A stretch of 64,000 nt of DNA from Pristiophorus japonicus (taxonomy: Eukaryota), in assembly GCF_044704955.1 (NCBI RefSeq), contig NC_091996.1, positions 72,974,001 through 73,038,000 on the forward strand. Reading direction: 5' to 3'. A program made the translations under genes and the position numbers. This document shows, piece by piece, positions 1-62,742 of this stretch. The notes beneath the pieces were generated by a model, which saw only the letters and a list, made by a program, of their open reading frames with translations, searched no databases and was not told the DNA's origin. Each line of letters opens with the position of its first letter. Positions within the stretch are counted from its first letter, which is position 1.

Positions 1-125
1 TTTGTCCCCTCGACCTAAAACTACTGAACTCAGTCTTTCCCTCCTGAAGTCTACAGGCTGTAAAACTGAAGCTTGGTGTCCCTCAGTCCCGAATCGATGA
101 TTTACCTCCCCTTTTCCCCTTCGGA

Positions 126-420
126 TGTGTTGCACACTCTGGGCCCTGGCCCTTCCCCGGGGATTCTCAGTATGAACAGGGGGGTGTGTGTTGAGACAGG
201 ATGTCCCAACTCTCCTCCCCCTGGGTTGTGTTGCACACTCTGGGCCCTGGCCCTTCCCTGGGGATTCTTAGTATTAACAGGGGGGTGTGTGTTGAGACAG
301 GATGTCCCAACTCTCCTCCCCCTGGGTTGTGTTGCACACTCTGGGCCCTGGCCCTTCCCTGGGGATTCTCTGTATGAACAGGGTGGATGTGTGTTGAGAC
401 AGGATGTCCCAGCTCTCCAC
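126..420. repeat. 101-bp tandem repeat, about 3 copies
   Basis: TGTGTTGCACACTCTGGGCCC recurs at 126, 227 and 328. Confidence 0.9.
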
Positions 421-654
421 CTTTAAAGGGATAAGGAGAGGACCAGCTGGGCTGAATGGCACTGTTTGATGACATAACTGCAGTGCCTAGCAACCAATCT
501 GCCTCAACCCTGCTCATTATGGGCTGGGTTTAGCTCAGTGCTGTTACAGGAAGGGAAACAGGAGCAGGATTTGACCCCTGTGGTGCCCAGGAATAATGGG
601 GAGAGGTACAGGATCAATTTATACCTTATTGAGTGAGAAATGTCAATGTCCCGG

Positions 655-3600
655 ACACTCCCTATGTGGGAAATCAGGGACACGTGTCCATGACAACTAT
701 GTGTGCGGGAAGTGTGTCGAGCTGCAGCTCCTGACAGACTGCATTGCGGAACTGGAGCTGCGCATGGATTCACTCTGGAGCATCCGCGATGCTGAGGATG
801 TCGTGAATAGCACGTTTAGAGAGTTGGTCACACCGCAGGCAAAGGGTACAAAGGCAGATAGGGAATGGGTGACCATCAGGCAGAGCAGTAGTAGGAAGGT
901 AGTGCAGGAGTCCCCTGTGGTCATCTCCCTCCAAAACAGATATACCGCTTTGGATACTGTTGGGGGAGATGGCTCATCAGGGGAAGGCAGCAGCTGCCAA
1001 GTTCATGGCACCATGGGTGGCTTTGCTGCACAGGAGGGCAGGGAAAAAAGTGGGAGAGCAATAGTGGTAGGGGATTCTATTGTAAGGGGAATAGATAGGC
1101 ATTTCTGAAGCCACAAACGAGACTCCAGGATGGTATGTTGCCTTCCAGCTGCAAGGGTCAAAGATATCTCGGAGCAGCTGCAGGGCATTCTGGAGTGGGA
1201 GGGTGAACAGCCAGTTGCCGTGGTGCATATAAGTACCAACGATATAGGTGAAAAGCAGGATGAGGTCCTACAAGCTGAATTTAGGGAGCTGGGGGTTAAA
1301 TTATAAAGTAGGACCTCAAAGGTAGTAATCTCAGGATTGCTACCAGTGCCACGTGCTAGTCAGAGTAAGTAGAAATAGCAGGATAGCTAAGCTGAATATG
1401 TGGCTTGAGGAATGGTGCAAGAGGGAGGGATTCAAATACCTGGGACATTGGAACTGGTTCTGGAGGAGGTGGGACCAGTACAAACCGGACGGGCTGCACC
1501 TGGGCAGGACCGGAACCGATGTCCTAGGGTGAGTATTTGCTAGTGCTGTTGGTGAGGATATAAACTAATAGGACAGGGGCAGAGAAACCTACGCAGGGAG
1601 ACAGAGGGAAGTAAAATGAGGTCAAAAGCAAAAGGTAGGAAGGAGAAAAGTAAAAGTGGAGGGAAGAAAAATCAAAGACAAAGATCAAAAAGGGCCACAT
1701 TACAGCATCATTCTAAAAGGACAAAGAGTGTTAAAACAAAAACAAGCCTGAAGGCTCTGTGTCTCAATACGAGGACTATTCGTAATAAGGCGGATGAATT
1801 AACTGCGCAGATAGCAGTTAACGGATATGATGTAATTGGCATCACGGAGACATGGCTCCAGGGTGACGAAGGCTGGCAACTCAACATCCAGGGGTATTCA
1901 CCATTCAGAAAAGATAGACAGAAAGGAAAAGGAATTGGGGTAGCATTGCTGGCTAAAGAGGAGATTAACGCAATATTAAGGAAGGACATCTGAGGTGGAA
2001 TCTGTATGGGTAGAGCTGCGGAACACCAAAGGGCAGAAAATGCTAGTGGGAATTGTGTACAGACCACCAAACAGTAGTAGTGAGGTTGGGGATGGCATCA
2101 AACAGGAAATTAGGGATGCGTGCAGTAAAGGTACAGCAGTTATCATGGGTGACTGTAATCTACATATAGATTGGGCTAACCAAACTGGTAGCAATACGGT
2201 GGAGGAGGATTTCCTGGAGTGTATAAGGGATGGTTTTCTAGACCAATATGTCGAGGAATGAACTCGAGAGCTGGCCATCCTAGACTGGGTGTTGTGTAAT
2301 GAGGGAGGATTAATTAGCAATCTTGTTATGCGAGGCCCCTTGGGGAAGAGTGACCATAATATAGTGGAATTCTTCATTAAGATGGAGAGTGACACAGTTA
2401 GTACAGAGACTAGAGTCCTGAAAAAGAAAGGTAACTTCGATGGTATGAGGCGTGAATTGGCTAGGATAGACTGGCAAATGGTACTTAAAGGGTTGATGCT
2501 GGATAGGCAATGGCAAATATTTAAAGATCACATGGATGAACTTCAACAATTGTACATCCCTGTCTGCCATAAAAATAAAACAGGGAGGGTGGCTCAACTA
2601 TGGCTTACAAGGGAAATTAGGGATAGTGTTAAATCCAAGGAAGAGGCATATAAATTGGCCCAAAAAAGCAGCACATCTGAGGACTGGGAGAAATTTAGAA
2701 TTTAGCAGAGGAGCACAAAGAGTTTAATTAGGAGGGGGAAAATAGAATATGGGAGTAAGCTTGCAGGGAACATAAAAACTGACTGCAAAAGCTTCTACAG
2801 ATATGTGAAGAGAAAAAGATTAGTGAAGACAAATGTAGGTCCCTTGCAGTCAGAATCAGGTGAATTTATAATGGGGAACAAAGAAATGGCAGACCAATTG
2901 AACAAATACTTTGGTTCTGTCTTCATTAACAAAGACACAAATAACCTTCCGGAAATACTAGGGGAACAAGGATCTAGTGAGAAGGAGGAACTAAAGGAAA
3001 TCCTTATTAGTCAGCAAATTGTGTTAGGGAAATTGATGGGATTGAAGGCCGATATATCCCCAGGGCCTTATAGTCTGCATCCCAGAGTACTTAACGAAGT
3101 GGCCCTAGAAATAGTGGTCATTTTCCAACATTCTATAGACTCTGGATCAGTTCCTATGGATTGGAGGGTAGCTAATGTAACCCCACTTTTTAAAAAAGAA
3201 AAGAGAAAACAGGGAATTCTAGGCCGGTCAGCCTGACATCGGTGGTGGGGAAAATGTTGCAATCAATTATTAAAGGTGTAATAGCAGCGCATTTGGAAAG
3301 CAGTGACAGGATTGGTCCAAGTCAGCATGGATTTATGAAAGGGAAATCATGCTTGACAAATCTTTTAGAATTTTTTGAGGATGTAACTAGTAGAGTGGAC
3401 AGGGAGAACCAGTGGATGTGGTGTATTTAGACTTTCAAAAGGCTTTTGACAAGGTCCCACATAAGAGATAAGTGTGCAAAATTAAAGCACATGGTATTGG
3501 GGTAACGTACTGACGTGGATAGAGAATTGGTTGGCAGACAGGAAGCAGACAGTAGGACTAAACGGGTCCTTTTCAGAATGGCAGGCAGTGACTAGTGGGG

Positions 3601-4605
3601 TACCGTAAGGTTCAGTGCTGGGATCCCAACTATTTACAATATACATTAATGATTTAGATAAAGGAATTGAATGTAATATCTCCAAATTTGTAGATGACAT
3701 TAAGCTGGGCGGCAGTGTGAGCTGTGAGGAGGATGCTAAGAGGCTGCAGCCTGACTTGGACAGGTTAGGTGAGTGGGCAAATACATGACAGATGCGGTAT
3801 AATGTGGATAAATGTGAGGTTATCCACTTTGTTGGTAAAAACAGGAAGGCTGATTATTATCTGAATGGTGACAGATTGGGAAAGGGGGAGGTACAACAAG
3901 GCCTGGGTGTCATGGTACATCAACATTGAAGGTTGGCATACAGGTACAGCAGGCGGTGAAGAAGGCAAATAGCATGTTGGCCTTCACAGTGAGAGGATTC
4001 AAGTATAGGAGTGGGGAGGTCGTACTGCAGTTGTACAGGGCCTTGGTGAGGCCACACCTTGAATATTGTGTTCAGTTTTGGTCTCCTAATCTGAGGAAGG
4101 ACATTCTTGCTATTGAGGGAGTGCAGCGAAGGTTCACCAGACTGATTCCCGGGATGACAAGTCTGACTTATGAAGAAAGACTGGATCGACTAGGTTTGTA
4201 TTCAATGGAATTTAGAAGAATGAGAGGGGATCTCACAGAAACATATAAAATTCTGACGGGATTGGACAGGTTAGATGCAGGAAGAATGTTCCCGATGTTG
4301 GGGAAGTCCAGAACCAGGGGTCACAGTAAGGTAAGGGGTAAGCCATTTAGGACCGAGATGAGGAGAAACTTCTTCAGAGAGTTGTGGGCATGTGGAATTC
4401 TCTACCACAGAAAGTTGTTGGGGCCAGTTCGTTAGATATATTCAAAAGGGAGTTAGATGTGGCCCTCACGGCTAAAGGGATCAAGGGGTCTGGAGAGAAA
4501 GCAGGAATGGGGTCCTGAAATGCATGATCAGCCATGATCATATTGAATGGTGGTGCAGGCTCAAAGGGCCAAATAACCGACTCCTGCACCTATTTTCTAT
4601 GTTTC
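655..4605 (+). mobile_element. Near full-length degenerate CR1 LINE (ORF1 zinc finger + SGNH esterase; ORF2 APE endonuclease + RT)
   Basis: ORF1 CGKC and GDSIVRG motifs; endonuclease GITETWL; [16 protein letters not shown] and [11 protein letters not shown]; many stops and frameshifts; TTTCTATG tail. Confidence 0.93.
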
Positions 4606-4679
4606 CCTGTCCCTCGGTATCAGTTTCTGGGAAAGAAGGATGTCAGTAAAGTTCCCTTTAGACCGCCCTGGATTTGTTT

Positions 4680-5035
4680 GATGGGCAATATAGAGGGAGC
4701 ATTACTCTGAACCTAACCCATGCTGTACCTGCCCTTGGAGTGGTTGATGAGGCAGTGTAGAGGAAACTTTACTCTGTATTTAACCCATGCCTTATCTAAC
4801 CCGTGCTGTACATTCCCTGGGAGTGTTTGATGGGACAGTGTAGAGGGAGCTTTACTCTGTATCTAACTCGTGCTGTATCTGCCCTGGGAGTGTTTGATGG
4901 GACAGTGTAGAGGGAGCTTTACTCTGTATCTAACCCGTGCTGTACTTGCCCTGGGAGTGTTTGATGGGACAGTGTAGAGGGAGCTTTACTCTGTATCTAA
5001 CCCGTGCTGTACCTGCTCCGAGTGCATTTGATGCT
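4680..5035 (+). repeat. 67-bp minisatellite, about 5 copies
   Basis: GGGACAGTGTAGAGGGAGCTTTACTCTG starts at 4832, 4899 and 4966. Confidence 0.9.
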
Positions 5036-5949
5036 GGCACGAGTTGCTCACATCGATGAACACACCTTTCAACTGAAAGATAAACCCATCAGCTTGTCCC
5101 TGGACGCAGGTCCTGAGGGTCAGTGAGTGTCCCGAACATTTTAAACATCTCCTCATCCTTTGTTCTAATCAGAAGAGCCCCAGGTTCTCGAATCTCTCTC
5201 CCCATAACTAAAGCCTCTTGTCCCTGCTATCATCTCAGTGAATCTCCACTGCACCCGCTCCATGACCTTGACAGTCACCTCACAGTAAAATGCCCCAAAA
5301 CTTGACACAATATTCTAAATACAGCCTAATCAATGATTTGTGCTCGACACCCGATTTATAAAACCAAGGATAACATTTTTAAACAACTTGATTAACTTGT
5401 CCTCCCATATTTAACGATTTGTGTAAATGAACACATTGTAGGTTTTAAAGATATTATCACGTGGCTGAAATCCATTGCCATGAAACGTCTGATATAATGT
5501 GTATTATGGGAGAGAAATTTATTCTGAGTTAGAAACTCAAACAGGAGCTTCACTGCAGACAGGTCACCGTGGCAACACTGATAAGGCATTCCATTCCACT
5601 GAACCCACTGACTGGAAACTGTAATCAGATCAGGGGAAACAGAGAGTTTTCCGTTATTAACCACAATATAAGCTTCATACAGAGTGAGTAATAGATTCAA
5701 TTATAATGTGCGATGAAAGGTTCTGACAGAAGGTCTCTCTCCACAGACGCTGCCTGACCTGAATATTTCCAGCATTTTGTTTTGATTTCAGATTTACAGC
5801 ATCCGCAGTATTTTGTTTCTGTAATTGGAATGTTCTTTCAGAGAGCCGCACAGGCACGATGGGCCGAATGGCCCCCTTCTGTGCTGTATCATTGTGATTC
5901 TATGAAGTGTCAGTTTAATGCAATTACAGAAGCATCAGAGAGTTTGTAT

Positions 5950-6260
5950 GAGAATGTAACTGAGTATCGAGCCAACGTGTCTGGGTTATGTAAACTGGAC
6001 ATGTTCACACTGGGACAGAGGTTGAGAGGTGATAGGATTACTGTTTGTGGGATTCTAAAGGGACTGGATAATGTAGAGCATGACAAGTTATTTCACCTTG
6101 TCCAGAACAGTAGAACCAGAGGGCATGGCCTGTGCTTAAAGGGGGTAAATTCAAATCCAATCTGTGGGAACAATATTTCAGTGAGAGTGGTCAATCTATG
6201 GGACAGGCTCCCTCGGGAGACAGTGGAAGCAATTCGTGTTGACTCATTCAATGGAAATTG
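5950..6260 (+). mobile_element. Old CR1-type RT C-terminal fragment
   Basis: RLRGD...RTRGH...RVVNLW motifs in ORF 5782..6303. Confidence 0.65.
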
Positions 6261-6790
6261 GTCCGATGTCATTCATAGAATGCCATTTTGGGACACAGTG
6301 TGAGAGTAATTTGAGACGTGATGTGTGGTAAGTGTAGAATGCTGGGGAGGAACAGGTGACTTTGGTCCTCTGGGTCCTAAAGCTCTCCACCCCTGGTGTT
6401 TTCCTCGCCTCATGTCTGGGTCTGTTGTACACTCATTGATAGCGACTGATTACTGTGATTGGTCAACACTCCAATACTGCTGTATCATGGGACCAGCAGG
6501 ATGGTAGAAGGCCAATTAGATGAGAACTGAAACAATCCAGAGTAAGGAAGGAGAAAAGGCCCAAAAATGGAGCAGTCAGTAACAGGACATCAATTGGTCT
6601 CTTAACATGGAGACACCATAGAATCCACAAAAAGTGTTTTTGAAGCAAAGCTGATTTATTTGACATTTATCCAGAATATTAAACTCCAGCGCAGTTACAG
6701 GTGTTATCAGCAGAAACAAACCCCAACTGCCTAAATGAACATGATTCAGTCCTGGATGTGATTAACAGCAGCAGAATCCAACCTCTGCAG

Positions 6791-7370
6791 TCATTTGTGA
6801 ACTTGCCGGTGTCTCAGTAAGGAGGATGACTGAGTGAATCCCTTCCCACACACAGAGCAGATGAACGGTCTCTCCCCGGTGACTGCGTTGATGAGTTTCC
6901 AGCTCAGACGGGTAACTACATCCTTCCCACATTTCCACGGTTTTTCCATGGTGTGGGTGCCCTTGTGTCTCTCCAGGTTGGACGAGGAGTTGAAGCCTCG
7001 TTCATACATAGAGAACACGTGTAGTTTCTCTCCGCTGTGAATGGTGCGATGTTTTTTCAGGCTGTGTGACAGGTTGAAGCTCTTTCCACAGTCAGTGCAC
7101 TGGAACACTCTCACTTGGGGGGGGGGGGGGTGTCTCAGGGGTTTTCCAGTCACATTGATGTTTGAAATCTTTCCCACAGACAGAACAGACAAACATTTCT
7201 CCTTCCACATTGAAAGGCGGCTGATATTCAGGCCCTGATGAATGGAGTGAGTGTGTGAGATGTGGATGTGATGTTGGGTGTGAGTTTGCGGCCTGTAAAT
7301 ACTGCCCTTCTCACATCCTGGAACAGCACTTTACAAAAGCCATCACTGAGAGTCCAGGATAGAAATTCAC
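6791..7370 (-). pseudogene. C2H2 ZNF pseudogene, MEKPW class, frameshifted
   Basis: [17 protein letters not shown] and terminal [22 protein letters not shown]; indels; 5' part homologous to 62330-62760. Confidence 0.85.
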
Positions 7371-9588: not shown

Positions 9589-10461
9589 CTATCCAGTGTG
9601 AACTCGCTGGTGTCTCAGCAGATGCTTTTTGCTTTTAAATCTCTTCTCACAGTCAGAACAGCTGAACGGCCACTTCCCAGTGTGAACTCGCTGATGTGCC
9701 AGCAGGTGGGATGAACGAGTGAATCCCTTTCCACACTCATTGCAGGTGAACGGCCTCTCCCCAGTGTGAACTCGCTGGTGTATTTGGAGATCGGATAACT
9801 GAGTGAATCCCATGCCACATTCAAAGCAGATGAACGGCCTCTCCCCAGTGTGAGCTCGCTGGTGTTTCAGCAGGGTGGATGATTGAGCAAATCCCTTTCC
9901 ACATACAGTGCAGGTGAACGGTCTCTCTCCAGTGTGAGTGCGCTGGTGCACAGTGAGTTCAGATGATCGCCTGAACCCAGTCCCACAGTGAGAGCATATG
10001 AATGGTCTCTCCCCAGTGTGAACACGTTTATGGCACCTCAGGACCCCGGAACTTTTATAGCACTTCCCACAGTCCAAGCATTTAAAAGGTCTCTCATCAG
10101 TATGAACTCGCTGGTGATTCAGCAAGTTGGATGACTGAGCAAATCCCTTCCCACACACGGTGCAGGTGAATGGCCTCTCCCCAGTGTGAACTCGCTGGTG
10201 TCTCAGCAGGTTGGATGACTGAGTGAATCCCTTCCCACACTCGGAGCAAGTGAACAGCCTCTCCCCAGTGTGAACATACTGGTGTCTCAGTAGGTGGGAT
10301 GAATCAGTGAAACCTTTCCCACACTCGGAGCAGCTGAATGGACTCTCCCCGGTGTGACTGCGCTTGTGTCTCGACAGGCCAGAGGATCGGTTGAAGCCTT
10401 GTCCACACACAGAACATGTGTATGGTTTCTCCCCACTCTGAACGGTGCTTTTTGCTTCCAT
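9589..10461 (-). CDS. C2H2 zinc-finger protein, 290 aa, 10 fingers, no effector domain
   Basis: Open frame from ATG (MEAKST) with 10 CxxC..HxxxH units and TGERP linkers; the track start at 10491 is TTG; candidate acceptor TTTTACAG|G at 10570. Confidence 0.85.
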
Positions 10462-10619
10462 GTTCAAACGTTGATGATATACAGGTCCCAATGAATTGAG
10501 CGACTGTCAGATCTTGATGTGATTTTTGGTTTGTTTTTTCCGTCTAAAAATTCTCCTCTTCCCTGTATCCTGTAAAATGAATTACAAAAAGAGGAAAGCG
10601 AACGTGAGAGGGAACCCAC

Positions 10620-11929: not shown

Positions 11930-12430
11930 GAAAGAAAGACTTGCATTTATATAGCGCCTTTCATGACCACCGGACGTCCCAAAGCGTTTTACAGCCAGTA
12001 ACGTACCTTTTGAAGTCTCGTCTCTGTTGTAATGTAGAAAACGAAGCAGCCAATTTGCGCACAGCATGCTCCCACAACTCTTTTGGGGGAACAAAATAAA
12101 CGTTAGATCAAGTGCCCCCCGATCTGGGGGACACTCCAGACACTTAACTGCCCCTTTTTTAAAAATGTTTTTGTTTCTTTTTTTTTGTTTTTTTGTGATT
12201 TTTTGGGGGGGGCATTAAAACCATATATTTTACAAGTGCCCCTTATAAAAGGGGAGGGCAAGCTCCCACAAAGAGCAATGTGATACTGTCCAGATAATCT
12301 TTTCTACTGATGTTGATTGATGGATGAATTTTGGCCAGGACACGGGGGCTAACTCGCCCATTTATCTTTGGAGTAGATCTTTTACGTTCACCTGAGAAAG
12401 AAGTGGTATCTCAGTTTAACGCGCTGAAAA
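11930..12430 (-). mobile_element. Deu-domain (SacSINE1-like) SINE, 3' part, interrupted at 12077-12257
   Basis: Collinear with the uninterrupted SINE copy at 36400-36882. Confidence 0.75.
12077..12257 (-). mobile_element. Tx1-like element 3' UTR fragment with 13-bp TSD
   Basis: TSD GCA(T/A)GCTCCCACA at 12064-12076 and 12258-12270; ends CAAAAGAGT; homologous to 22020-22231. Confidence 0.8.
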
Positions 12431-15130: not shown

Positions 15131-15855
15131 GATGTAGAAGGTATTTACAATGAATTCAAGGGGCCCTTACATTTCTGATCTTTCTTTATTCCATCCACTC
15201 GAGGAGTTAGATAACAGACTATCTCCTGTGAATACAGAGCTGGATTATTGGGCCGGCATGTGTTTACTTGTTTGTCTTTTGTTTAATTTGCTGAGTGGAT
15301 TTAAATTTAAAACCAGGTTTGCAGGCGAGATGCTCTATTCACACATCAAAGGTGAGAGAGATGCTGCCAGGCGCACGCTAAGCCCAGTCGCTGAAAGTGA
15401 TTAACAAACTGGGTTTTGTGTTTAGTGATCCCGGGCATGTTTCCAACACCTTCCCTGGATACCAAGGCTAGGAGAGATACGGGCAGATGGCACTTGTCCA
15501 TGTGAGTAACCCAAGGTCTGAGAACTGAAACAATCTAGAGTTAGAAAGGAGCAAAAGCACAAATGATCAGTAACTAGGACATCAATCAGTCTCTTACCTT
15601 GAAGACATCAAGTAGTTGACATGCTGAGTTTGAAACAAAGCTGATTTATTTAACATATATCTGGAATATTAAACTCCAGCCCAATTATAGACATTATTAA
15701 CATCAGCAGAATCAAATCCCAAACTGCCAGACAGAACATGTGCTGCTGAAACCCCCATCCATGCCCTTGTTACCTTGAGACCCAACTATTCCAATGCTTT
15801 CCTGGCCCACCTCCCACACTGCACCCTCCCTAAACTGGAGCTCATCCAAAGCTCT

Positions 15856-16125
15856 GCTGCCCGTATCCTAACTAGTACCAGGTCCCGCTCACCCATCACC
15901 CCTGTGCTCGCTGCCCATTTCCTAACTAGTACCAGGTCCCGCTCACCCATCACCCCTGTGCTCGCTGCCCGTATCCTAACTAGTACCAGGTCCCGCTCAC
16001 CCATCACCCCTGTGCTCGCTGCCCGTATCCTAACTAGTACCAGATCCCGCTCACCCATCACCCCTGTGCTCGCTGACCGTATCCTAACTAGTACCAGGTC
16101 CCGCTCACCTATCACCCCTGTGCTC
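15856..16125 (+). repeat. 54-bp tandem repeat x5 inside the L2
   Basis: AARILTSTRSRSPITPVL-type unit repeated five times; single copy in the 46.3 kb paralog. Confidence 0.92.
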
Positions 16126-16234
16126 GCTGACCTACATTGGCTCCTGGTCCAGCAATGCCTCAATTCTAAAATTCTCATCTTTGTTTTCAAATCCCTCCAT
16201 GGCCTCGCCCCTCATTATCTCTGTAACCTCCTCC

Positions 16235-20910: not shown

Positions 20911-21863
20911 TTAAGTGATTGTGTAAGATATTGACGAGATGTTTGGTTTGAGCTTCCCATCTGCAAATCTTCACCTTCTAATAACCTGTGAAAGGAGTTT
21001 ACAAAAGTTATCACTGTAAATACAAGATATTCAGAACAGACAATTGTAGTGTCTATAGAACATTCTTTCCCCTTTTGTTCCCCAAAGCTGTAAATCTCCC
21101 ATCCGACACGCTCCTCCCACTTTCTGCTCATTGTGAGAGATTCGTCACCTACATAAGAACATAAGAATTAGGAACAGGAGTAGGCCATCGAGCCCGTCGA
21201 GCCTGCTCCGCCATTCAAAAAGATCATTGCTGATCTGGCCATGGACTCAGCTCCACTTACCCGCTCGCTCCCCGTAACCCTTAATTCCCTTATTGGTTAA
21301 AAATCTATCTATCTGTGATTTAAATACATTCAATGAGCTAGCCTCAACTGCTTCCTTGGGCAGAGAATTCCACAGATTCACAACCCTCTGGGAGAAGAAA
21401 TTCCTTCTCAACTCGGTTTTAAATTGGCTCCCCCGTATTTTGAGGCTGTGCCCCCTAGTTCTAGTCTCCCCGACCAGTGGAAACAATCTCTCTGCCTCTA
21501 TCTTGTCTATCCCTTTCATTATTTTAAATGTTTCTATAAGATCACACCTCATCCTTCTGAACTCCAACGAGTAAAGACCCAGTCTACTCAATCTATCATC
21601 ATAAGGTAACCCCCTCATCTCCGGAATCAGCCTAGTGAATCGTCTCTGTACCCCCTCCAAAGCTAGTATATCCTTCCTTAAGTATGGTGACCAAAACTGC
21701 ACGCAGTACTCCAGGTGCGGCCTCACCAATACCCTATATAGTTGCAGCAGGACCTCCCTGCTTTTGTACTCCATCCCTCTCGCAATGAAGGCCAACATTC
21801 CATTCGCCTTCCTGATTACCTGCTGCACCTGCAAACTAACTTTTGGGGATTCATGCACAAGGA

Positions 21864-22231
21864 TGTCCTTGGAGATGGAGCACGCGGTGTCCACCGGTAC
21901 GCTCGCGGCCTTCCGCGAGAGGTGGGCACCGGAGGGACTGGAGTGCATCATCACGCCCGGCAACCAAATTTTAATTTGATTTTACGTTTTAAAGTTAATT
22001 TGTTTTAATTGCCGGTGCTTTTAGTGTCCCCTTCCCTTTTATAGGGGGCACTGGGGAAAAATTGTGATTTTAGTGCCCAAAAAAAAAAAAAACAAAAAAA
22101 AAAGAAAAGAAAAAAAAAAAACACAAAAAAGGAGGAAAAAAAAAAATGGGCCTTGTAAATGTCTGGAGTGTCACCCAGGTCGGGTGGCACCGTTTAATGT
22201 TTTATGTTTTCACAGATAAACTCAAAAGAGT
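21864..22231 (+). mobile_element. Tx1-like non-LTR 3' fragment, copy 1
   Basis: Encodes SLEMEHAVSTGTLAAFRERWAPEGLECIITPGNQILI*; flanked by TTCATGCACAAGGA at 21850-63 and 22232-45. Tx1 assignment is from recalled similarity of the C-terminus. Confidence 0.8.
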
Positions 22232-22245
22232 TTCATGCACAAGGA

Positions 22246-22585
22246 TGTCCTTGGAGATGGAGCACGCGGTGTCCACCGGTACGCTCGCGGCCTTCCGCGA
22301 GAGGTGGGCACCGGAGGGACTGAAGTGCATCATCACGCCCGGCAACCAAATTTTAATTTGATTTTACGTTTTAAAGTTTAATTTGTTTTCATTGCCGGTG
22401 CTTTTAGTGTCCCCCTCCCCTTTTATAGGGGGCACTGGGAAAATTTGATTTTAGCGCCCCCAAAAAAAAAAAAAAATAAATAAATTAAAAAAAAAAAAAA
22501 GGGGCCTTGAAAATGTCTGCTGTGTCACCCAGGTCGGGTGGCATGGTCTTAATGTTTTATGTTTTGCAGGTAAACTCAAAAGAGT
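22246..22585 (+). mobile_element. Tx1-like non-LTR 3' fragment, copy 2
   Basis: Same 5' end as copy 1, diverged UTR; flanked by the same 14-mer at 22232-45 and 22586-99. Confidence 0.8.
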
Positions 22586-23616
22586 TTCATGCACAAGGAA
22601 CCCCAGGTCCCTCTGCACCACAGCATGTTGTAATTTCTCCCCATTCAAATAATGTTCCCTTTTACTGTTTTTTTTTCAAGGTGGATGACCTCACATTTTC
22701 CAACATTGTATTCCATCTGCCAGACCTTAGCCCATTCGCTTAACCTATCCAAATCTCTTTGCAGCCTCTCTCTGTCTTCTGCACAACCCGCTTTCCCACT
22801 AATCTTTGTGTCATCTGCAAATTTTGTTTACACTACACTCTGTCCCCTCTTCTAGGTCATCTCTGTATATTGTAAACAGTTGTGGTCCCAGCACCAATCC
22901 CTGTGGCACACCACTAACCACCGACTGCCAACTTGAAAAGGACCCATTCATCCCGACTCTCTGCTTTCTGTTAGCCAGCCAATTCTCTATCCATGCTAAT
23001 ACATTTCCTCTGACTCCGCGTACCTCTATCTTCTGCAGTAACCTTTTGTGTGGAACCTTATCGAATGTCTTTTGGAAATCCAAATACACCACATCCATCG
23101 GTACACCTCTATCCACCATGCTCATTATATCCTCAAAGAATTCCAGTAAATTAGTTAAACATGATTTCCCTTTCATGAATCCATGTTGTGTCTGCTTGAT
23201 TGCACTATTCCTATCTAGATGTCCCGCTATTTCTTCCTTAATGATAGTTTAAAGCATTTTCCCCACTACAGATGTTAAACTAACCAGCCTATAGTTACCT
23301 GCCTTTTGCCTGCCCCCTTTTTTAAACAGAGGCATTACATTAGCTGCTTTCCAATCCGCTGGTACCTCCCCAGAGTCTGGAGAATTTTGGTAGATTATAA
23401 CGAATGCATCTGCTATAACTTCCGCCATCTCTTTTAATACTCTGGGATGTATTTCATCAGGACCAGGGGACTTGTCTACCTTGAGTCCCATTAGCCTGTC
23501 CAGCACTACTTCCCTTGTGAAAGTGATTGTCTCAAGGTCCTCCCTTCCCACATTCCCGTGACCAGCAATTTTTGGCATGGTTTTTGTGCCTTCCACTGTG
23601 AAGACCAAAGCAAAAT

Positions 23617-24070
23617 TTACAGATGCTCCCTGACCAGTCCCCATTTATAGACATTTCCTGACCGGTCCCCATTTACAGACGCTCCCTGACCACTCCCCAT
23701 TTACAGACACTTCCTGACTGGTCCCCATTGAGATGCTCCCTGACCGGTCCCCACTGACCGACGCTCCCTGACCGGTCCCCACTGACAGACGCCCTCTGAC
23801 CGGTCCCCATTGACAGACGCCTCCTGACCGGTCCCCGTTGACAGACGCCTCCTGACCGGTCCCCGTTGACAGACGCCTCCTGACCAGTCCCCGTTGACAG
23901 ACGCCTCCTGACCGGTCCCCGTTGACAGACGCCTCCTGACCGGTCCTCGTTCACAGACGCTCCCTGACCGGTTTCCATTGACAGATGCTCCCTGAGCGGT
24001 TCCCATTGACAGACGCCCCCTGACTGGTCCCCATTGACAGGCGTTCCCCATTAACAGACGCTCCCTGACT
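23617..24070. repeat. 28-bp CpG-rich minisatellite, about 16 copies
   Basis: CCTGACCGGTCCCCGTTGACAGACGCCT-type unit at 23823, 23851 and 23879. Confidence 0.9.
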
Positions 24071-24622
24071 GTCGGGTTGTCCTGGAGTTTAGGCCGTAAC
24101 CTGGCACCAGTTGTGGGGAGGTGGATAATGTGGAGTTTGCTGTGGGGCCTGGGCCGCACTCTGTGTGTGAAGCCCGCCCGGGGTTAATTAACCCGCTCCC
24201 TCCGACCATCTCTCACCCGCTGTCGCCGCTCTGCCTCCTGGCCCCGCCCACTCGCCGCGCATGCTCAGCTCTGATCACCTCATTGATCCTCACACTCCGA
24301 TTGGTTGGAGGACCAACCGCCCGCTCGGTCCTCCAGACGCACCCCCGCTCTTCCTATTGGTCCGGAGCGGCCGTCACTCCCCCGAGCAGCGTGAACTGAG
24401 CATGCGCAGTCGGTGGGTGAGAGATGGGTGGAGGGTCAGAGCAAATTCCGCATTATCTGCTTCACACACACCCGCTGTGGGCGTCAGACCCCGAACAACA
24501 ATCTCCGGCTCCGGCCTTTACCCCGAGCGGGTCCCCGGGGGAGGGGCAGCTGCGGGATTTTCTCCCGGTGACAGGCCAGGGAACGGCCGCCATCTTGTTC
24601 GGTCAGGGGCAGCAGGACGCAT
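24070..24622 (+). promoter_or_regulatory. CpG-island ZNF promoter, inverted paralog of 43360-43880
   Basis: GC box, two ATTGG (CCAAT) boxes, GCATGCGCA NRF1-like motifs and a CCGCCATCTT YY1-like motif. Confidence 0.65.
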
Positions 24623-26874
24623 TGTAATACAGATTGAGGATGAGGAAGTTGTGTCAGAAACGAGCGTACAATGCTTAAACAAAGGGGACTACAGTGGGAT
24701 GAGGGCAGAGTTGGCTAAAGTAGACTGGAAACAAGGACTAAACGGTGGCACAATTGAGGAACAGTGGAGGACTTTTAAGGAGCTCTTTCATAGTGCGCAA
24801 CAAAAATATATTCCAGTGAAAAAGAAGGGCGGCAAGAGAAGGGATAACCAAGGAAATAAAGGAAAGTATCAAATCAAAGACCAATGCATATAAGGTGGCC
24901 AAGGTTAGTGGGAAACTAGAGGATTGGGAAAATTTTAAGCAACAGCAAAGAATGACTAAAAAAGCAATAAAGAAAGGGAAGATAGATTACGAAGGTAAAC
25001 TTGCGCAAAACATAAAAACAGATAGTAAAAGCTTTTACAGATATATAAAACGGAAAAGAGTGACTAAAGTAAATGTTGGTCCCTTAGAAGATGAAAAGGG
25101 GGATTTAATAATGGGAAATGTGGAAATGGCTGAGACCTTAAACAATTATTTTGCTTCCGTCTTCACAGTGGAAGACACAAAAACCATGCCAAAATTTGCA
25201 GGCCACAGGAATGTGGGAAGGGAGGACCTTGAAACAATCACTATCACTACGGGGGTAGTGCTGGACAGGCTAATGGGACTCAAGGTAGACAAGACCCCTG
25301 GTCCTGATGAAATGCATCCCAGGGTATTAAAAGAGATGGCGGAAGTTATAGCAGATGCATTCGTTATAATCTACCAAAATTCTCTGGACTCTGGGGTGGT
25401 ACCAGCGGATTGGAAAGCAGCTAATGTAACGCCTCTGTTTAAAAAAGAGGGCAGGCAAAAGGCAGGTAACTATAGGCCGGTTAGTTTAACATCTGTAGTG
25501 GGGAAAATGCTTGAAACTATCATTAAAGAAGAAATAGCGGGACATCTAGATAGGAATAGTGCAATCAAGCAGACGCAGCATGGATTCATGAAAGGGAAAT
25601 CATGTTTAACTAACTTATTGGAATTCTTTGAGGATATAACGAGCATGGTGGATAGAGGTGTACCGATGGATGTGGTGTATTTAGATTTCCAAAAGGCATT
25701 CAATAAGGTGCCACACAAAATATTACTGCAGAAGATAAAGGTACGCGGAGTCAGAGAAAATGTATTAGCATGGATAGAGAATTGGCTGGCGAACAGAAAG
25801 CAGAGAGTCGGGATAAATGGGTCCATTTCCGGTTGGAAATCAGTTGTTAGTGGTGTGCCACAGGGATCGGTGCTGGTACCACAACTGTTTACAATATACA
25901 TAGATGACCTAGAAGAGGGGACAGAGTGTAGTGCAACAAAATTTGCAGATGACACTAAGATTAGTGGGAAAGCGGGTTGTGTAGAGGACTCAGAGAGACT
26001 GCAAGGAGATTTGGATAGGTTAAGCGAATGGGCTAAGGTTTGGCAGATGGAATACAATGTCGGAAAGTGTGAGGTCATCCACCTTGGGAAAAAAAACAGT
26101 AAAAGGGAATATTATTTGAATGGGGAGAAATTACAACATGCTGTGGTGCAGAGGGACCTGGGGGTCCTTGTGCATGAATCCCAAAAGGTTAGTTTGCAGG
26201 TGCAGCAGGTAATCAGGAAGGCAAATGGAATGTTGGCCTTCATTGCGAGAGGGATGGAGTACAAAAGCAGGGAGGTCTTGCTGCAACTGTATAAGGTATT
26301 GGTAAGGCCGCACCTGGAGTACTGTGTGCAGTTTTGGTCACCTTACTTAAGGAAGGATATACTAGCTTTGGAAGGGGTACAGAGACGATTCACTAGGCTG
26401 ATTCCGGAGATGAGGGGGCTACCTTATTATGATAGATTGAGTAGACTGGGTCTTTACTCGTTGGAGTTCAGAAGGATGAGGGGTGATCTTATAGAAACAT
26501 TTAAAATCATGAAAGGGATAGACAAGATAGAGGCAGAGAGGTTGTTTCCACTGGTAAGGGAGACTAGAACTAGGGGGCACAGCCTCAAAATACGGAGGAG
26601 CCAATTTAAAACCGAGTTGAGAAAGAATTTCTTCTCCCAGAGGGTTGTGAATCTGTGGAATTCTCTGCCCAAGGAAGCAGTTGAGGCTAGCTCATTGAAT
26701 GTTTTCAAGTCAAAGATAGATAGATTTTTAACCAATAAGGGAATAAAGGGTTATGGGGAGAGGGCGGGTAAATGGAGCTGAGTCCACGACCAGATCAGCC
26801 ATGATCTTATTGAATGGCGGAGCAGGCTCGAGGGGCTAGATGGCCTACTCCTGTTCCCAATTTTATGTTCTTAT
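24623..26874 (+). mobile_element. Young 5'-truncated CR1 with an open RT frame (24895-26781)
   Basis: 628-codon ORF with KFADD; possible TSD GCAT at 24619-22 and 26875-78. Confidence 0.95.
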
Positions 26875-31246: not shown

Positions 31247-32284
31247 TTTCATTCTTGGGATGTGGGTGTCGCTAGCAAGGCCATCACATATTGCCAATCC
31301 CCAGTTTCCCGTTGAGAAGGTGATGGTGGGCCTTCTTGAACCGCTGCAGTCCGTGTGGTGAAGGTATTCCCACAATGCTGTTTGGTAAGCAGGTCCAGGA
31401 TGTTCATTCAGCGACGATGTCGAAACAGCGATTTCTGTCCACGTCAGGATGGTGCGTGGCTTGGAGGTGAACTTGGAGCTGACTGTGCTCTGTGAGCCCC
31501 TTGCCCGTATCTCAAACAGCTCAATAGAGTCAGGAATTGTTCCCCGCGATGGGAAGGGAGCTGACCTAGCTCCCCTTTTCCAAATGGAGGGCCTCCTGCC
31601 AACGAACAGGAAGCTGTGCAGAAGCATTCTGCGGATAACTATCAAGCCCCAAATGTTAAAAATAATGTTCACCACAACAGACGGAGCATCTGAGAAGTGC
31701 TGAAGCACATCACTAATAAAGTTTCATTAATGTTAGTGTGGTTGGTTTAATTTATCTTTGCTTTATTAATGTTACTATAGTTGGGTTAATGTTACTGGTG
31801 ATTTTTCCTGTTTAAGAACCGCTGTCTCGAAGGACAAACAACAGCTTTTGAAAATAAACTCACAGTTCAAACTAATGTTTCTAATAGAATTCTCTAAATC
31901 TGCTTTTATTTCTCATTTTGGGAGGATTTGCGAGGGCGCAACAACTTCCGGGTCTTTGGCAGCAGTCGCGCCATGTTTTTTTAACCTCACAGAGCCTCTG
32001 AATTGTTCATTCAAGGGACCTTCTTTTTGGCCCAAGTCGATTTCCTCCCTTCTTTCACACTTCGACATTTTGATAATAGACTTTTGGAATTTGGGACAAG
32101 AACAGGCGGATCCAGGTGTTACGCTGGTTACATCCAATCATCAGCCTACCTGTCCCAGGCCCCACCAGTCACCTTATGATTCCACCAACATATCTTCATC
32201 CATTACCCGCCTTTCACCCTCACTGGAGCTGGATTCACCACCATGACCATTCCGCATACTGAGACTCTCTGATTCCCATTTATA

Positions 32285-32645
32285 GTCTCAGTGTAAGTGG
32301 TCGCTGGATTTGGTGTCCAGTGTAATTGGTCCCTGGATTTGGTGTCTCAGTGTAAGCGATCCCTGGATTTGGTGCCTTAGTGTAAGTGGTCCCTGGATTT
32401 GTTGTCTCAGTGTAAGTGGTCTCTGGATTTGGTGTCCCAGTGTAATTGGTCCCTGGATTTGGTGCCTTAGTGTAAGTGGTCCCTGGATTTGGTGTCCAGT
32501 GTAATTGGTCCCTGGATTTGGTGTCCCAGTGTAATTGGTCCCTGGATTTGGTGTCTCAGTGTAAGCGATCCCTGGATTTGGTGCCTTAGTGTAAGTGGTC
32601 CCTGGATTTGTTGTCTCAGTGTAAGTGGTCTCTGGATTTGGTGTC
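32285..32645. repeat. 30-bp minisatellite, about 12 copies
   Basis: GGTCCCTGGATTTGGTGTCTCAGTGTAAGT-type units. Confidence 0.92.
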
Positions 32646-32739
32646 AGGGAGGAAGTGCGCTGTCTCCACCTCCCAGTCCTTCACCTAGCAGCTTTTGATC
32701 TTTTTCTGGCCCCTCTTTTTCCAGTCTTGGTTGTTGCTC

Positions 32740-38607: not shown

Positions 38608-41600
38608 AAACATAAGAATTTGGAGCAGGACTAGGCCATTAGGCCCCATCGTGCCTGCTCCACCATTTAATAACATCATGGCTGATCTGATCTTGGACTC
38701 AGCTCCACTTCCCTGCCCGCTCCCCATAACCCTTTACCCCCTTATTGATCAGAAATCTGTCTATCTCCGCCTTAAATATGTTCAATGACCGCACCTCCGC
38801 AGCTGTATGGGGCAGAGAATTCCACAGATTTACGACTCTTTGAAAGAAGAAATTCCCCCTCATCTTAGTTCGAAATGGGTGACTCCTTATTCTTAAACTA
38901 CGCCTCCCAGTTCTGGATTCCCCACGAGTGGCAACATCCTCTCTGCATCTACCTTGTCGAACCCCCTCAGTATCTTACATGTTTCAATAAGATCACCTCT
39001 CATTCTTCTAAACTTCAATGAGTGTAGGCCCAACCTACTCATCTGTTCTTCATAAGTCAATGCCCTCATCTCTGCAATCAACCTAGTGAACCTTCACTGA
39101 ACTGCCTCCAATGCAAGTATATCCTTCCTTCAATAAGGAGACCAAAACTTTATGCAGTACTCTAGGTGTGGCCTCAACAATACCCTGTACAGTTGTAGCA
39201 GGAGTGTTCTGTTTTTATACTCCATCCCCCTTTCAATAAAGGCCAACATTCCATTTGTCTTCTTGATCACTTGCTGTACCTGATACTAGCTTTTTGTGTC
39301 TCATGCACAAGGACCCGCAGGTCCCTCTGAACTGCATTTTGTAGTTTCTTTCCATTTAAATAATAATTTGCTTTTTTTATTTTTCCTGTCAAAGTGGATA
39401 ACCTCATACTTTTCCACATGATACTCATTCTGACAAATTTTTGCACACTCACCGGTCTATATCCCTTTGCAAATTTTGTGTGTCCTCCTCCTCAACTTGC
39501 TTTCCCACCCATCTTTGTACCATCAGCAAACTCAATCCCTTCATCCAAGTCATTAATATCGATTGTAAATAGTTGAGGCCCCAGCACCAATCCCTGTGGC
39601 ACCCCACTAGTTACCATTTGCCAACCGGAAAATGATCCATTTATCCCGACTCTCTGTTTTCTGTTAGTTAGCCAATCCTCTATCCATGCTAAACTATTAC
39701 CCCTGACCTCTTGAGCTCTTATCTTGTGCAGTGACCTTTTATTTGGCACCTAATTGAATCCCTTTTGGAAGTCCAAATACACCACACCCACTGATTCCCC
39801 CTTATCCACCCTGCTCGTTACATCCTCAAAGAATTCCAGCAAATTTGTCAAACATGATTTCCCCTTCATAAATCCATGTTGACTCTGCTTGACTGTATTA
39901 TGCTTTTCCAAATGTCCTGCTGCTGCTTCCTTAATTATGGATTCCAGCATTTTACCAACAACAGATGTTAGTCCTGCTTTCTGTCTGCCTCCTTTTTTAA
40001 ATAGGGGCATTACATTTGCGGTTTTCCAATCTGCTGGGACCTTTCCAGAATCCAGGGAATGTTGGTAAATTACAACCAATGCATCCACTATCTCTGTAGC
40101 CACAGCTTTTAAGACCCTGGGATGCAGGCCATCAGGTCCAGGGTCTTGTCTACCTTTAGGCCCAATATTTTACCGAGTGCTTTTTCTTTAGTGATAGTGA
40201 TTGTTTTAAATTCCTACCTCCCTATAACCCTTTGATTATCTATTATTGGGATGTCTTTAGTGTCTTCTACCATGAAGACCGATACTAAATGTCTGTTCAA
40301 AGTCTCCGGCATTTCCCTGTTCTCCGTTATTAATTCCCCAGTCTCATCCTCTAAAGGACCAACGTTTACTTTAGCTACTCAATTCCTTTTTAGATTACTG
40401 TGGAAACTTTCACTGTCTGTTTTTATTTTCTTGCTAGATTACTCTCATACTCTATCTTTCCTCTCTATCATTTTTTTAGTCATTCTTTCCGATTTTAAAA
40501 ATCTTGGCCATTTTGTATACCATTTTTTAAAATTTGATATCATCGTTTACTTCCTTAGCTAGCCACGAAGGGTTCTCCCTTCTCTTAAAGTCTTTCCTTC
40601 TCACTGGAATATATTTTTGTTGAGAGTTATGAAATATCTCCTTAAATATCTGCCACTGATTATCAACTGTCTTACACTTTAATCTATTTTCCCAGTCCAC
40701 TTCAGCCAACTCTGCATTCATGCCTTTGTAATCGCCTTTATTTAAGATCAGGAACATAAGAACATAAGAAATAGGAGCAGGAATAGGCCATTTGGCCCCT
40801 TGAGCCTATCCCGCCATTCAATAAGATCAAGGCTGATCTGATCATGGTCGCAGCTCCACTTCCCTGCCCGCTTCTCATAACCCTTTACTCCCTTATCGTT
40901 CAAAGATCTGTCTATCTTCACCTTAAATATATTCAGTGACCCAGCCTCCACAGCTCTCTGGGACAGAGAATTCCATCAATTTACAACCCTGAGAGAGAAG
41001 AAATTCCTCCTCAACCAACAATCCATTTGCCTTCCTCATTACTTGCTGTACCTGCATACTAACATTTTGTGTTTCATGCACAAGGATCCCCAGGTCCCTC
41101 TGTACTACAGCACTTTGCAATTTTTTTCCACTTAAATTATAATTTGCTTTTCTATTATTTCTGCCAAAATGGATAACCTCACATTTTCCCACATTATACT
41201 CCATCTGCCAAATTTTTGTCCACTCGCTTAGGCTGTGTATATCACTTTGCAGATTTTTTGTGTCCTCCTCACAATTTGCTTTCCCACCCATCTTTGTATC
41301 ATCAGCAAAATTGGCTACATTACACTCAGTCCCTTCGTCCAAGTCGTTAATATAGATTGTAAATAGTTGAGGCCCCAGCACAGATCCCTGCAGCACCCCA
41401 CTAGTCACTGTTTGCCAACTGGAATGTGAGCCATTCATTCCAACTCTCTGTTTTCTGTTAGTAAGCCAATCCTCTATCCATGCTAATATATTAACTTTTA
41501 TCTTGTGTAGTAACCTTTTATGTGGCACCTTATCGAATGCCTTCTGGAAATCCAAATACACCACATCCACTGGCTCCCCCTTATCCACCCTGCCTGTTAC

Positions 41601-42140: not shown

Positions 42141-42899
42141 TCACTTGTGAACTCGTTGATGTCTCAGCAGGTGGGATGATTGAGTGAATCCCTTCCCACA
42201 CACAGAGCAAGTGAACGGCCTCTCCCCAGTGTGAACTCGCTGGTGTCTCAGCAGGGTGGATGACTGAGTGAAGCCTTTTCCACACAAGAAGCAGTTGAAC
42301 GCCTTCTCCCCAGTGTGAACGCATTGGTGTGTCAGCAGGTGGGATGATTGAATGAATCCTTTCCCACACACGGAGCAGGTGAACGGTCGCTCCCCAGTGT
42401 GAACTCGCTGGTGTGTCAGCAGGTGGGATGAGTTAGCGAATCCCTTCCCACAGACAGAGCAAGTGAACGGCCTCTCCCCCGTGTGACTGTGTTGGTGTGT
42501 CAGCAGATCTCTTGTGCTTTTAAAGTACTTTCCACACTCAGAGCATCTGAAAGGTCTCTTTTCTGTGTGAACAAGTTGGTGTTTCGCGAGGTTTCCTAAT
42601 TGAGTGAATCCCTTTCCACACACAGTGCAGGTGAACGGTCTCTCTCCAGTGTGAACTCGCTGATGTTCAGTGAGGCTAGATGACTGCCCGAACCTCTTAC
42701 CACAGTGAGAGCAACAGTATGGCCTCTCCCCAGTGTGAACTCGCTGGTGTGTCAGAAGGTGGGATGACTGACTGAATCCCTTCCCACACACAGAGCAGGT
42801 GAATGGCCTCTCCCCGGTGTGACTGCGTCGATGAGTTTCCAGCCGGGAGGGGGAGCTGAATCCCTTCCCACAGTCTCCACATATCCACGGTTTCTCCAT
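42141..42899 (-). CDS. C2H2 zinc-finger protein, 252 aa, 9 fingers (MEKPW class)
   Basis: Intact ORF; Kozak context CCACCATGG; nine canonical fingers. Confidence 0.88.
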
Positions 42900-43329
42900 G
42901 GTGGGGGTGTCCTTGTGTCTCTCCAGCTTGGACGATCAGTTAAAGCCTCATCCACACACACAAACACGTGTACGGTTTCTCCCCGCTGTGAATGGTGTGA
43001 TGTTTTTTCAGGCTCTGTAACTGGTGAAAGCTCTTTCCAGTCAGTGCACTGGAACACTCTCACTCAGGTGTGTGTGTCTCGGGGCTTTTCCAGTCACACT
43101 GATGTTTGAAATGTTTTCCCACAGACAGAAGAGACAGACATTTCTCCTTCCACATTGAAAGGCCGCTGATATTCAGGCCCTGATGAATGGAGTGACTGTG
43201 TGAGATGTGGATGTGATGTTGGGTTTGAGTTTGCGGCCTGTAAATGCTGCCCTTCTCACAGCCTGGAACAGCACTTTACAAAAGCCCTGACTGTGAGTCC
43301 AGGATAGAAATTCACAACATTCTCTCCTC

Positions 43330-46631: not shown

Positions 46632-47540
46632 GCAAAGAGATTTAGATAGGTTAAGCGAATGGGCTAAGGTTTGGCAGATGGAATACAATGTCGGAAAACG
46701 TGAGGTCATCCACCTTGAGAAAAAAAACAGTAAAAGGGAATATTATTTGAATGGGGAGAAATTACAACATGCTGCAGTGCAGAGGGACCTGGGGGTCCTT
46801 GTGCATGAAACTCTTTTGGAAAATACCTCCTTGTGCATGAATCCCAAAAAAAGTTAGTTTGCAGGTGCAGCAGGTAATCAGGAAGGCAAATGGAATGTTG
46901 GCCTTCATTGCGAGAGGGATGGAGTACAAAAGCAGGGAGGTCCTGCTGCAACTATATAGGGTATTGGTGAGGCCGCACCTGGAATACTGCGTGCAGTTTT
47001 GGTCACCATACTTAAGGAAGGATATACTAGCTTTGGAGGGGGTACAGAGACGATTCACTAGGCTGATTCCGGAGATGAGGGGGTTACCTTCTGATGATAG
47101 ATTGAGTAGACTGGGTCTTTACTCGTTGGAGTTCAGAAGGATGAGGTGTGATCTTATAGAAACATTTAAAATAATGAAAGGGATAGACAAGATAGAGGCA
47201 GAGAGATTGTTTCCACTGGTCGGGGAGACTAGAACTAGGGGGCACAGCCTCAAAATACGGGGGAGCCAATTTAAAACCGAGTTGAGAAGGAATTTCTTCT
47301 CCCAGAGGGTTGTGAATCTGTGGAATTCTCTGCCCAAGGAAGCAGTTGAGGCTAGCTCATTGAATATATTCAAATCACAGATAGATAGATTTTTAACCAA
47401 TAAGGGCATTAAGGGTTATGGGGAGCGGGCGGGTAAGTGGAGCTGAGTCCACGGCCAGATCAGCCGTGATCTTGTTGAATGGCGGAGCAGGCTGGAGGGG
47501 CTAGATGGCTTACTCCTGTTCCTAATTCTTATGTTCTTAT
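46632..47540 (+). mobile_element. 5'-truncated CR1 carrying an 18-bp insert at 46810-46827
   Basis: RT C-terminus ORF 46859-47446; TTCTTATG tail. Confidence 0.92.
46810..46827 (-). mobile_element. Ultra-short Tx1-like 3' end (GGTATTTTCCAAAAGAGT) with 14-bp TSD
   Basis: TCCTTGTGCATGAA at 46796-46809 and 46828-46841, the same site as at 21.85-22.6 kb. Confidence 0.75.
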
Positions 47541-62330: not shown

Positions 62331-62742
62331 TGAATTTCTATCCTGGACACACAGGGCTTTTGTAAAGTGCTGTTCCAGGCTGTGAGAAGGGCAGCATTTA
62401 CAGACCGCAAACTCAAACCCAACATCACATCCACATCTCACACAGTCACTCCATTCATCAGGGCCTGAATATCAGCGGCCTTTCAATGTGGAAGGAGAAA
62501 TGTTTGTCTCTTCTGTCTGTGGGAAAACATTTCAAACATCAGTGTGACTGGAAAAGCCCCGAGACACACACACCTGAGTGAGAGTGTTCCAGTGCACTGA
62601 CTGTGGAAAGAGCTTTCACCAGTTACAGAGCCTGAAAAAACATCACACCATTCACAGTGGGGAGAAACCGTACACGTGTTCTGTGTGTGGACAAGGCTTC
62701 AACTGATCGTCCAACCTGGAGAGACACAAGGACACCCCCACC

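Follow-up and report, generated by a model that had tools for sequence, protein, structure and literature searches.

A young Tx1-like LINE at a fixed CR1 site in Pristiophorus japonicus, and tandem copies that probably inherit their 5′ junctions

Introduction

Families of the Tx1 clade of non-LTR retrotransposons have been described with targets in piggyBac, Mariner, Harbinger and LTR elements as well as in snRNA genes and microsatellites, and a criterion given by Kojima regards a non-LTR family as target-specific when more than 20% of its flanks fall in one sequence type (PMC4494074). The endonuclease of one such element, Tx1L, is sequence-specific (PMC1950540). Tandem arrays of R1 have been proposed to grow by insertion into the 5′ target-site duplication (TSD) of copies that already exist (PMC2718515). 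With regard to how integration is completed, a four-way-junction model for R2 has the cDNA pair with upstream rDNA carried on the RNA (PMC6895275), and in templated insertions of L1 cDNA pairing is rare and the templates are small (10.1101/2024.08.27.596794). Statements about these and the other sources cited here refer to the accessible sections of each.

We analysed a stretch of 64,000 nucleotides from Pristiophorus japonicus (GCF_044704955.1, NC_091996.1, positions 72,974,001 to 73,038,000), referred to as the window, and followed its elements through the genome. The reading that we consider probable from the sequence comparisons below is that a young Tx1-clade LINE inserts antisense at a fixed base of CR1 with 14-bp TSDs, and that the 5′ junctions of its tandem copies commonly arise through pairing of the cDNA with a downstream copy.

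Results

Two Inserts, Three Target Copies, and the CR1 Host

The target 14-mer TTCATGCACAAGGA, called T throughout, occurs three times around two inserts of 368 and 340 bp that both end in CAAAAGAGT (Table 1), as a sequence-only reading of the window had reported; with up to two mismatches allowed, T has 8 matches in the window against 0.77 expected. The outer flanks are two halves of a single antisense repeat coding for reverse transcriptase (RT), and they share 95–98% identity with CR1 copies found at 26.2 and at 46.8 kb. This repeat, which we take to be CR1 from its motifs, has an RVT_1 match (obtained with Pfam on the open copy at 26 kb), FADDTK and DLG motifs, and a short 3′ UTR with terminal short tandem repeats. 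T is antisense to codons for (V/F)LVHE situated directly after DLG and about 25 codons beyond the end of the RVT_1 match, so that its earlier assignment to VLVHE codons holds. The host subfamily retains long open frames (653 aa), though the host copy in the window is already broken. The same reading had proposed that the element parasitises CR1 and disrupts its RT; the insertion does lie inside the coding region of CR1, but an effect on CR1 does not follow from this copy, and since it was already truncated and broken a safe-haven reading fits equally well, in which an abundant and mostly dead repeat would provide a safe landing site.

The three other sites listed as empty in that reading, at about 26166, 39300 and 41073, proved unfilled, the second of them with one mismatch to T. 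The filled site that it placed at 46.8 kb does have the T-insert-T arrangement in the same orientation relative to its CR1, but the insert is 18 bp long and only its last 9–11 bases are family-like. The CR1 subfamily with GTCATGGTACATCA was said to be free of inserts, and none is present at its four sites (3909, 30539, 56847 and, in variant form, near 49.8 kb), but with 16% occupancy so small a number of empty sites carries no information. Tiny inserts of 11–33 bp are common at the CR1 site, and those of 11–18 bp lie between full 14-bp TSDs (for example C1:2389061, 16088493, 16574777, 29909833 and 40737860 on contig C1, and 46810–46827 in the window).

Other features of the window include C2H2 zinc-finger genes or fragments that cluster among the LINEs (9592–10506 and 42144–42935 on the − strand, 62707–63999 on the + strand), with 84-bp repeats of this cluster near 20.1–20.8, 37.4, 45.2–45.9 and 48.3–48.9 kb. 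Minisatellites with units of 28, 30, 54 and 67 bp occupy 23593–24099, 32248–32665, 15802–16186 and 4663–5071, respectively, and the 28-bp minisatellite starts at the point where the host CR1 copy is cut off.

Table 1. Target sites, inserts and CR1 parts in the window
Feature	Position	Strand	Basis
Sister-lineage insert (12258–12077) with 13-bp TSD (one mismatch), in another, SINE-like repeat	12064..12270	−	
Host CR1 LINE, 3′ part (ORF2 end and 3′ tail); about 700 bp from target to CR1 3′ end	21153..21863	−	Translation LVHESPKVSLQ...
Target/TSD copy 1, TTCATGCACAAGGA	21850..21863	+	14-mer match
Insert 1, 5′-truncated putative Tx1-clade LINE, reference positions 6840–7194	21864..22231	+	93% to full-length copy L081
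Final 37 codons and stop of ORF2 in insert 1	21866..21979	+	SLEMEHAVSTG...NQILI-stop, the end of the 1,299-aa ORF2
Element 3′ end ACTC-AAAA-GAGT, predicted small hairpin, no poly(A) tail	22220..22231	+	ACTC-loop-GAGT in 263/295 ends
Target/TSD copy 2	22232..22245	+	14-mer match
Insert 2, 5′ start as in insert 1, other 3′ UTR variant	22246..22585	+	86% identical to insert 1
Target/TSD copy 3	22586..22599	+	14-mer match
Host CR1 LINE, 5′ part (RT region); truncated and interrupted by stops and frameshifts	22586..23616	−	Sequence comparison
Empty target in CR1 of the host subfamily, within a 653-aa open frame (24820–26778, +)	26165..26178	−	Site comparison
Empty variant target, one mismatch, another CR1 subfamily	39300..39313	+	Site comparison
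Empty exact 14-mer, second CR1 subfamily, rarely hit (5/452 genome-wide)	41073..41086	+	Site comparison
Second filled site: TSD 46841–46828, 18-bp mini-insert 46827–46810, TSD 46809–46796	46796..46841	−	

Structure and Affinity of the Element

The inserts are the 3′ ends of a 7.2-kb LINE with an ORF1 and an APE-RT ORF2. A natural full-length copy (L081, C1:9710133–9717326) measures 7,194 bp and encodes an ORF1 of 698 aa and an ORF2 of 1,299 aa, the latter with Exo_endo_phos, RVT_1 and zf-RVT domains (N-terminal APE endonuclease, RT and C-terminal zinc knuckle) and with catalytic motifs that align with human L1 ORF2p. The best named full-length match to ORF2 is Tx1L of Xenopus laevis (YTX2_XENLA), at 54% over residues 1–900, 49% identity across 1,296 aligned residues and 64% in the RT; over residues 1–900 it scored 1,088 bits, versus 285 bits for human L1 in a separate search. 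This similarity makes the RT Tx1-like, as had been supposed when it was expected to be of L1/Tx1 type. In an RT tree of 26 rows, which includes three CR1 rows but no L1 row and none named Keno, Kibi or Koshi and which leaves the forks within the group undecided, the element pairs with a stingray RT fragment (100/99) among Tx1L-like matches, away from the CR1 rows. Membership of the R1 clade was considered and rejected, given that the top named matches are Tx1-type and the target is CR1; the element is R1-like only in TSD length and in forming arrays. The endonuclease hairpin loop described for Tx1L (PMC1950540) is 3 residues shorter here and lacks RDGH. ORF1 has a zf-CCHC match that falls below the curated cut-off and eight homologues, including those of sturgeon and turtles, with the ORF1 of Tx1L not among the eight.

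Of 31 full-length copies, 20 keep ORF1 and ORF2 open, and the median private-allele rate is 0.2% over 225 copies, which together indicate that the family is young. The terminus, with the ACTC-loop-GAGT arrangement given in Table 1, is accompanied by neither poly(A) nor AATAAA.

Target Specificity across the Genome

The exact junction, CTCAAAAGAGT followed by T, has 4,746 matches in the 5.9-Gb genome, many of them 7.2 kb apart, and 0 in the control. The element-end pattern alone has 6,962 matches, and in 4,310 of these (62%; control 0) the exact T comes next. Among the first 100 ends on C1, a sample that contains members of arrays and one segmental duplication in four copies, 69 are followed by exact T, 17 by T with one or two mismatches and 1 by a short TSD, while 13 lie elsewhere, so that 87 are at the CR1 site. 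Both the 62% and the 87 of 100 lie above the 20% of the Kojima criterion. The 3′ flanks are non-random, in agreement with the target-specific family postulated in the sequence-only reading, but the specificity is not absolute, with 13 of the 100 ends off target.

Nine of the 13 off-target flanks start with TTC and four with TA. The latter, whose TSDs start TA(A/G/A)A (C1:5668254, 34437008, 58393825 and 67299323), possibly reflect a second cutting preference or a third sub-lineage. Most off-target copies have their own local TSDs of 11–16 bp, and a few have no detectable TSD; because these local TSDs stand in place of T, T is genomic and no part of the element. Pairing of read-through RNA with the target, as proposed for R1, was unsupported in a check that followed 4 of 345 matches, and where an off-target copy has a clear TSD, TTC is already present in the 5′ TSD; R1 off-target copies carry read-through target bases (PMC2718515), whereas no such bases were demonstrated for the element here. 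At the left junctions all 14 TSD bases are present in 66 of 84 cases and fewer in 18, so that of the two junctions the 3′ one is constant, at the first base of T, and the 5′ one varies.

Occupancy differs between CR1 subfamilies. In the main subfamily 5,522 of 35,265 exact sites are filled (15.7%), versus 5 of 452 (1.1%) in the subfamily of the copy at 41073, and three of those five resemble main-subfamily variants. The preference for one CR1 subfamily proposed earlier is thus upheld despite a common 14-mer, and either recognition extends past the 14-mer or another difference between the subfamilies matters.

A reading without targeting, in which the 14-mer would derive from the element tail or a single filled CR1 would have been amplified with its passenger, finds some footing in a recent segmental duplication that carries a filled site four times on C1 (L001–L004, at 0.23, 1.39, 2.07 and 3.24 Mb; 99% over 3 kb) and in the small number of recurring truncation points. 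Against this stand 88 distinct combinations of locus and truncation point, ranging from position 40 to 7140, the off-target copies with local TSDs and no T, and the excess of empty over filled sites by five to one; the range of truncation points and the 3′ variants refute it, and its probability is practically nil. The element is very probably, to judge from these flanks, a Tx1 element that targets this CR1 site. As for other organisms, 20 sequencing runs from 9 studies were listed, and among the listed contig pieces from four of these runs, which included the ORF2 end and the empty CR1 site, none bridged the junction between element and CR1.

An Older Sister Lineage with Other Targets

An older sister lineage comprises 71 copies ending TTTGTCCCCCAAAAGAGT, and no full-length copy of it was found. 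In the 30 copies examined T came next in 0 and the flank started with TG in 29; nine of the 30 flanks lie at one site of an LTR-like repeat and two at a SINE-like site. The nine-flank repeat looks like an LTR, judging by a purine tract and then TG. The main site, TGTAGAGCTGTTG, is about 35 bp inside this LTR-like repeat (L277, L279, L286, L288 and others; for example C5:213880268). The SINE-like site is filled at five loci (the window locus on the − strand in Table 1, C3:177804987, C5:81.69 Mb, C5:203353936 and C9:37668957), one of which is an array of at least nine sister-lineage copies; a large family residing on this site was ruled out, there being 8 matches at 5 loci. Inspection of 20 sister loci at 10 kb (17 of the 30 examined, two more from the list and one chosen array) showed adjacent copies in 18, with a common start in 22 of 37 pairs. 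A recent target switch within one Tx1 lineage is possible.

Tandem Copies with a Shared 5′ Junction

The two inserts in the window begin at the identical base of the element (reference position 6840) with sequences 14% apart, a feature that the first reading overlooked, and 8 of the 9 substitutions scored between them are family-shared variants. Array mapping extended this comparison to 108 blocks of 1.16 Mb in all, mostly on contigs C1 and C2, which hold 275 copies and 163 adjacent pairs; the loci were picked by junction patterns neutral to sharing rather than by random draw, and segmental-duplication copies are included. Arrays contain 2–10 copies. Where the downstream copy is truncated and the upstream 5′ end visible, 80 of 112 adjacent pairs start within 2 bases of each other, versus 28 of 3,807 pairs across loci, and with one pair per locus 43 of 61 share the start. 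None of the 80 sharing pairs is fully identical; their divergence is 0.84 times that of unrelated copies, and 880 of the 1,461 differences within them are family-wide variants, which means that the bodies descend from separate source elements and that inheritance is limited to the junction. We infer that neighbouring copies of different origin inherit their 5′ junction, a point that had gone unnoticed. Local duplication of one insert, or an assembly artefact, would also give identical 5′ starts, but with 0 of 80 pairs identical, with family-wide differences as numerous as between unrelated copies and with the window inserts 86% identical, this origin is extremely improbable, and for most pairs local duplication is refuted. 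Microhomology as the source of shared truncations was likewise rejected, 42 of 54 junctions having none at all, which is near chance.

The agreement between neighbours is concentrated at the junction. In 14 of 18 adjacent full-length pairs the first difference lies past base 40 or is absent (the median for unrelated pairs is 7). The first family-shared difference falls within the first tenth in 20 of 43 long pairs, with about 4 expected if switch points were uniform; 3 of these 20 are full-length pairs without a common 5′ end. Higher-order units also occur, in which short copies are 0–1 substitutions apart and long copies agree at the 5′ end and diverge later, for example after a first 1,614 bp with no difference, where unrelated copies show 40–50 sites per kb. 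Arrays outside CR1 show shared starts and local 14-bp duplications at 4 of 4 loci. Upstream copies carry fewer private mutations (22 vs. 6 of 46 loci, p=0.004), as does the first copy relative to the last (16 vs. 5 of 40 complete arrays, p=0.027); the age test on all 80 pairs is weak (32 vs. 18 toward a younger upstream copy, p=0.065), and in 49 pairs with different starts the upstream copy has fewer in 18 vs. 9 (p=0.12). For the window, these family statistics point to insert 1 as the probable younger of the two copies, its 5′ junction presumably derived from insert 2.

Single insertions would be accounted for through target-primed reverse transcription (TPRT), that is, through a nick, priming of the RT and a cut of the second strand. 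By analogy with TPRT, the endonuclease would recognise a TTCA(T) core together with flanking CR1 bases and nick the bottom strand at T's left edge, the RT would prime at this nick, and the cut in the top strand would follow some 14 bp downstream. Since the duplication restores T, the site can be hit again and arrays of 2–10 copies result. If T is already followed downstream by an earlier copy, the newly made cDNA would anneal to that copy's top strand, from which second-strand synthesis would start. The duplication would then comprise T and the earlier copy's 5′ part, and the resulting upstream copy would combine the earlier 5′ junction with a 3′ body of its own; pairing with a more distant downstream copy would duplicate whole short copies and generate higher-order units. 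The features that this model predicts were all seen, namely junctions shared by neighbours whose bodies differ, upstream copies that are the younger ones, switch points close to the junction and higher-order units, and we hold the pairing step itself to be likely on these sequence patterns.

Independent 5′ ends at insertion, followed by crossover or conversion between one-copy and two-copy alleles, could end in an identical structure, chimeric upstream copy included. Neighbours that are nearly identical do exist, and longer downstream copies go with somewhat more sharing (8 of 17 pairs below 400 bp and 8 of 10 above 2.5 kb), as later recombination would also predict; R1 arrays, moreover, reportedly expand by unequal exchange (10.1101/158386). 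Recombination would, however, need to have reworked about 70% of pairs, including the 8 of 17 with less than 400 bp of homology, and shared junctions are also found in pairs at single-copy off-target sites, while the crowding of switch points at the junction speaks against it as well. We regard this route as unlikely for the shared junctions. Some neighbours in arrays do differ by only 0–3 positions over 7.2 kb, indicating that plain unequal exchange occurs too.

The same arrangement would also arise if insertion took place at the right-hand T and the cDNA switched to the upstream copy, copied its 5′ end and T and then joined, leaving the downstream copy as the young chimera. Two loci (C1:57756043 and C1:43464118), where a mutated T flanks an inner or last copy on either side, demonstrate that an inner or right-hand T is also used, at least sometimes, and that arrays grow in ways other than upstream addition. 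As a general route this is quite improbable, however, since private mutations are fewer in upstream copies and since in the four-fold T-mini-T-copy units at C1:59138659 the cDNA would have to bypass a usable T before it joined. We therefore continue to prefer the reading in which the cDNA pairs with a copy already downstream. Some truncation points (6610/6617, 6241 and 6901) recur at separate loci on C1 and C2, one of them with matching variant first bases; these may reflect pausing of the RT, or the junctions may have been carried on transcripts that read through arrays.

Discussion

Comparison with Described Systems

Like Tx1L, the element described here is a sequence-specific APE LINE that enters another transposon (PMC4494074; PMC1950540), but the target of Tx1L is Tx1D, a non-autonomous piggyBac DNA transposon, while here it is the coding region of a LINE. 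A preference for transposons (Mariner, LTR elements, Harbinger) is also shared with the crocodilian families Tx1-Mar, Tx1-8_Crp, Tx1-4_AMi, Tx1-9_AMi and SINEU-3, and tandem copies of SINEU-3 sandwich a TSD as the copies here do; unlike the present element with its open frames, the crocodilian families are old (PMC4494074). In the accessible text of that study, neither CR1 nor another LINE is named as a target, and shared truncation points are not mentioned either.

Drosophila R1 in 28S rDNA is likewise an APE LINE with a fixed 3′ junction, a 14-bp TSD and TSD-separated arrays, but it belongs to the R1 clade and differs in target, and the accessible part of that work contains no account of inherited 5′ truncation points (PMC2718515). 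The tandem dimers that McGurk and Barbash ascribed to double insertion resemble the arrays here in that the TSD regenerates the target and the dimers follow the site preference; distinct 5′ truncations mark double insertion in their data (6 of 10 jockey dimers), whereas here most independent neighbours share the truncation (10.1101/158386). As in R2 and L1, the cDNA would pair with nearby homologous DNA to complete integration (PMC6895275; 10.1101/2024.08.27.596794), but here an earlier copy of the element itself is the inferred partner, in about 70% of tandem events. The literature searched, a scope outside which lie Repbase, Dfam and most subscription papers, yielded no description of a CR1 target or of inherited 5′ truncation points. 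Taken together, Tx1 families that target transposons and tandem arrays of R1 were known already, and the CR1 target and the mode of array growth appear to be new.

Implications

In its broadest form, our reading is of a LINE lineage that homes on retroelements, has recently switched targets (CR1 here, LTR-like and SINE-like repeats in the sister lineage) and normally completes integration on its own earlier copy, a combination on which we are evenly divided. If it is true, a first insertion, even at a stray site, would seed an array that inherits one 5′ junction, 5′ and 3′ halves would be shuffled between subfamilies, higher-order repeats would form without unequal crossing-over, and one sixth of young CR1 sites would be filled. 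The list of Tx1 targets would gain the coding region of a LINE at a measurable scale, with thousands of insertions and intact copies. The inherited 5′ junction bears on how APE LINEs finish second-strand synthesis and the 5′ junction, and would offer a natural, high-frequency case, open to direct testing, in which cDNA pairs with DNA lying downstream. Simple duplication could then no longer be concluded from identical truncation points in tandem LINEs, and the process would be a possible route from a transposon to a satellite-like array. Furthermore, close lineages with differing targets would provide a system in which to map endonuclease specificity.
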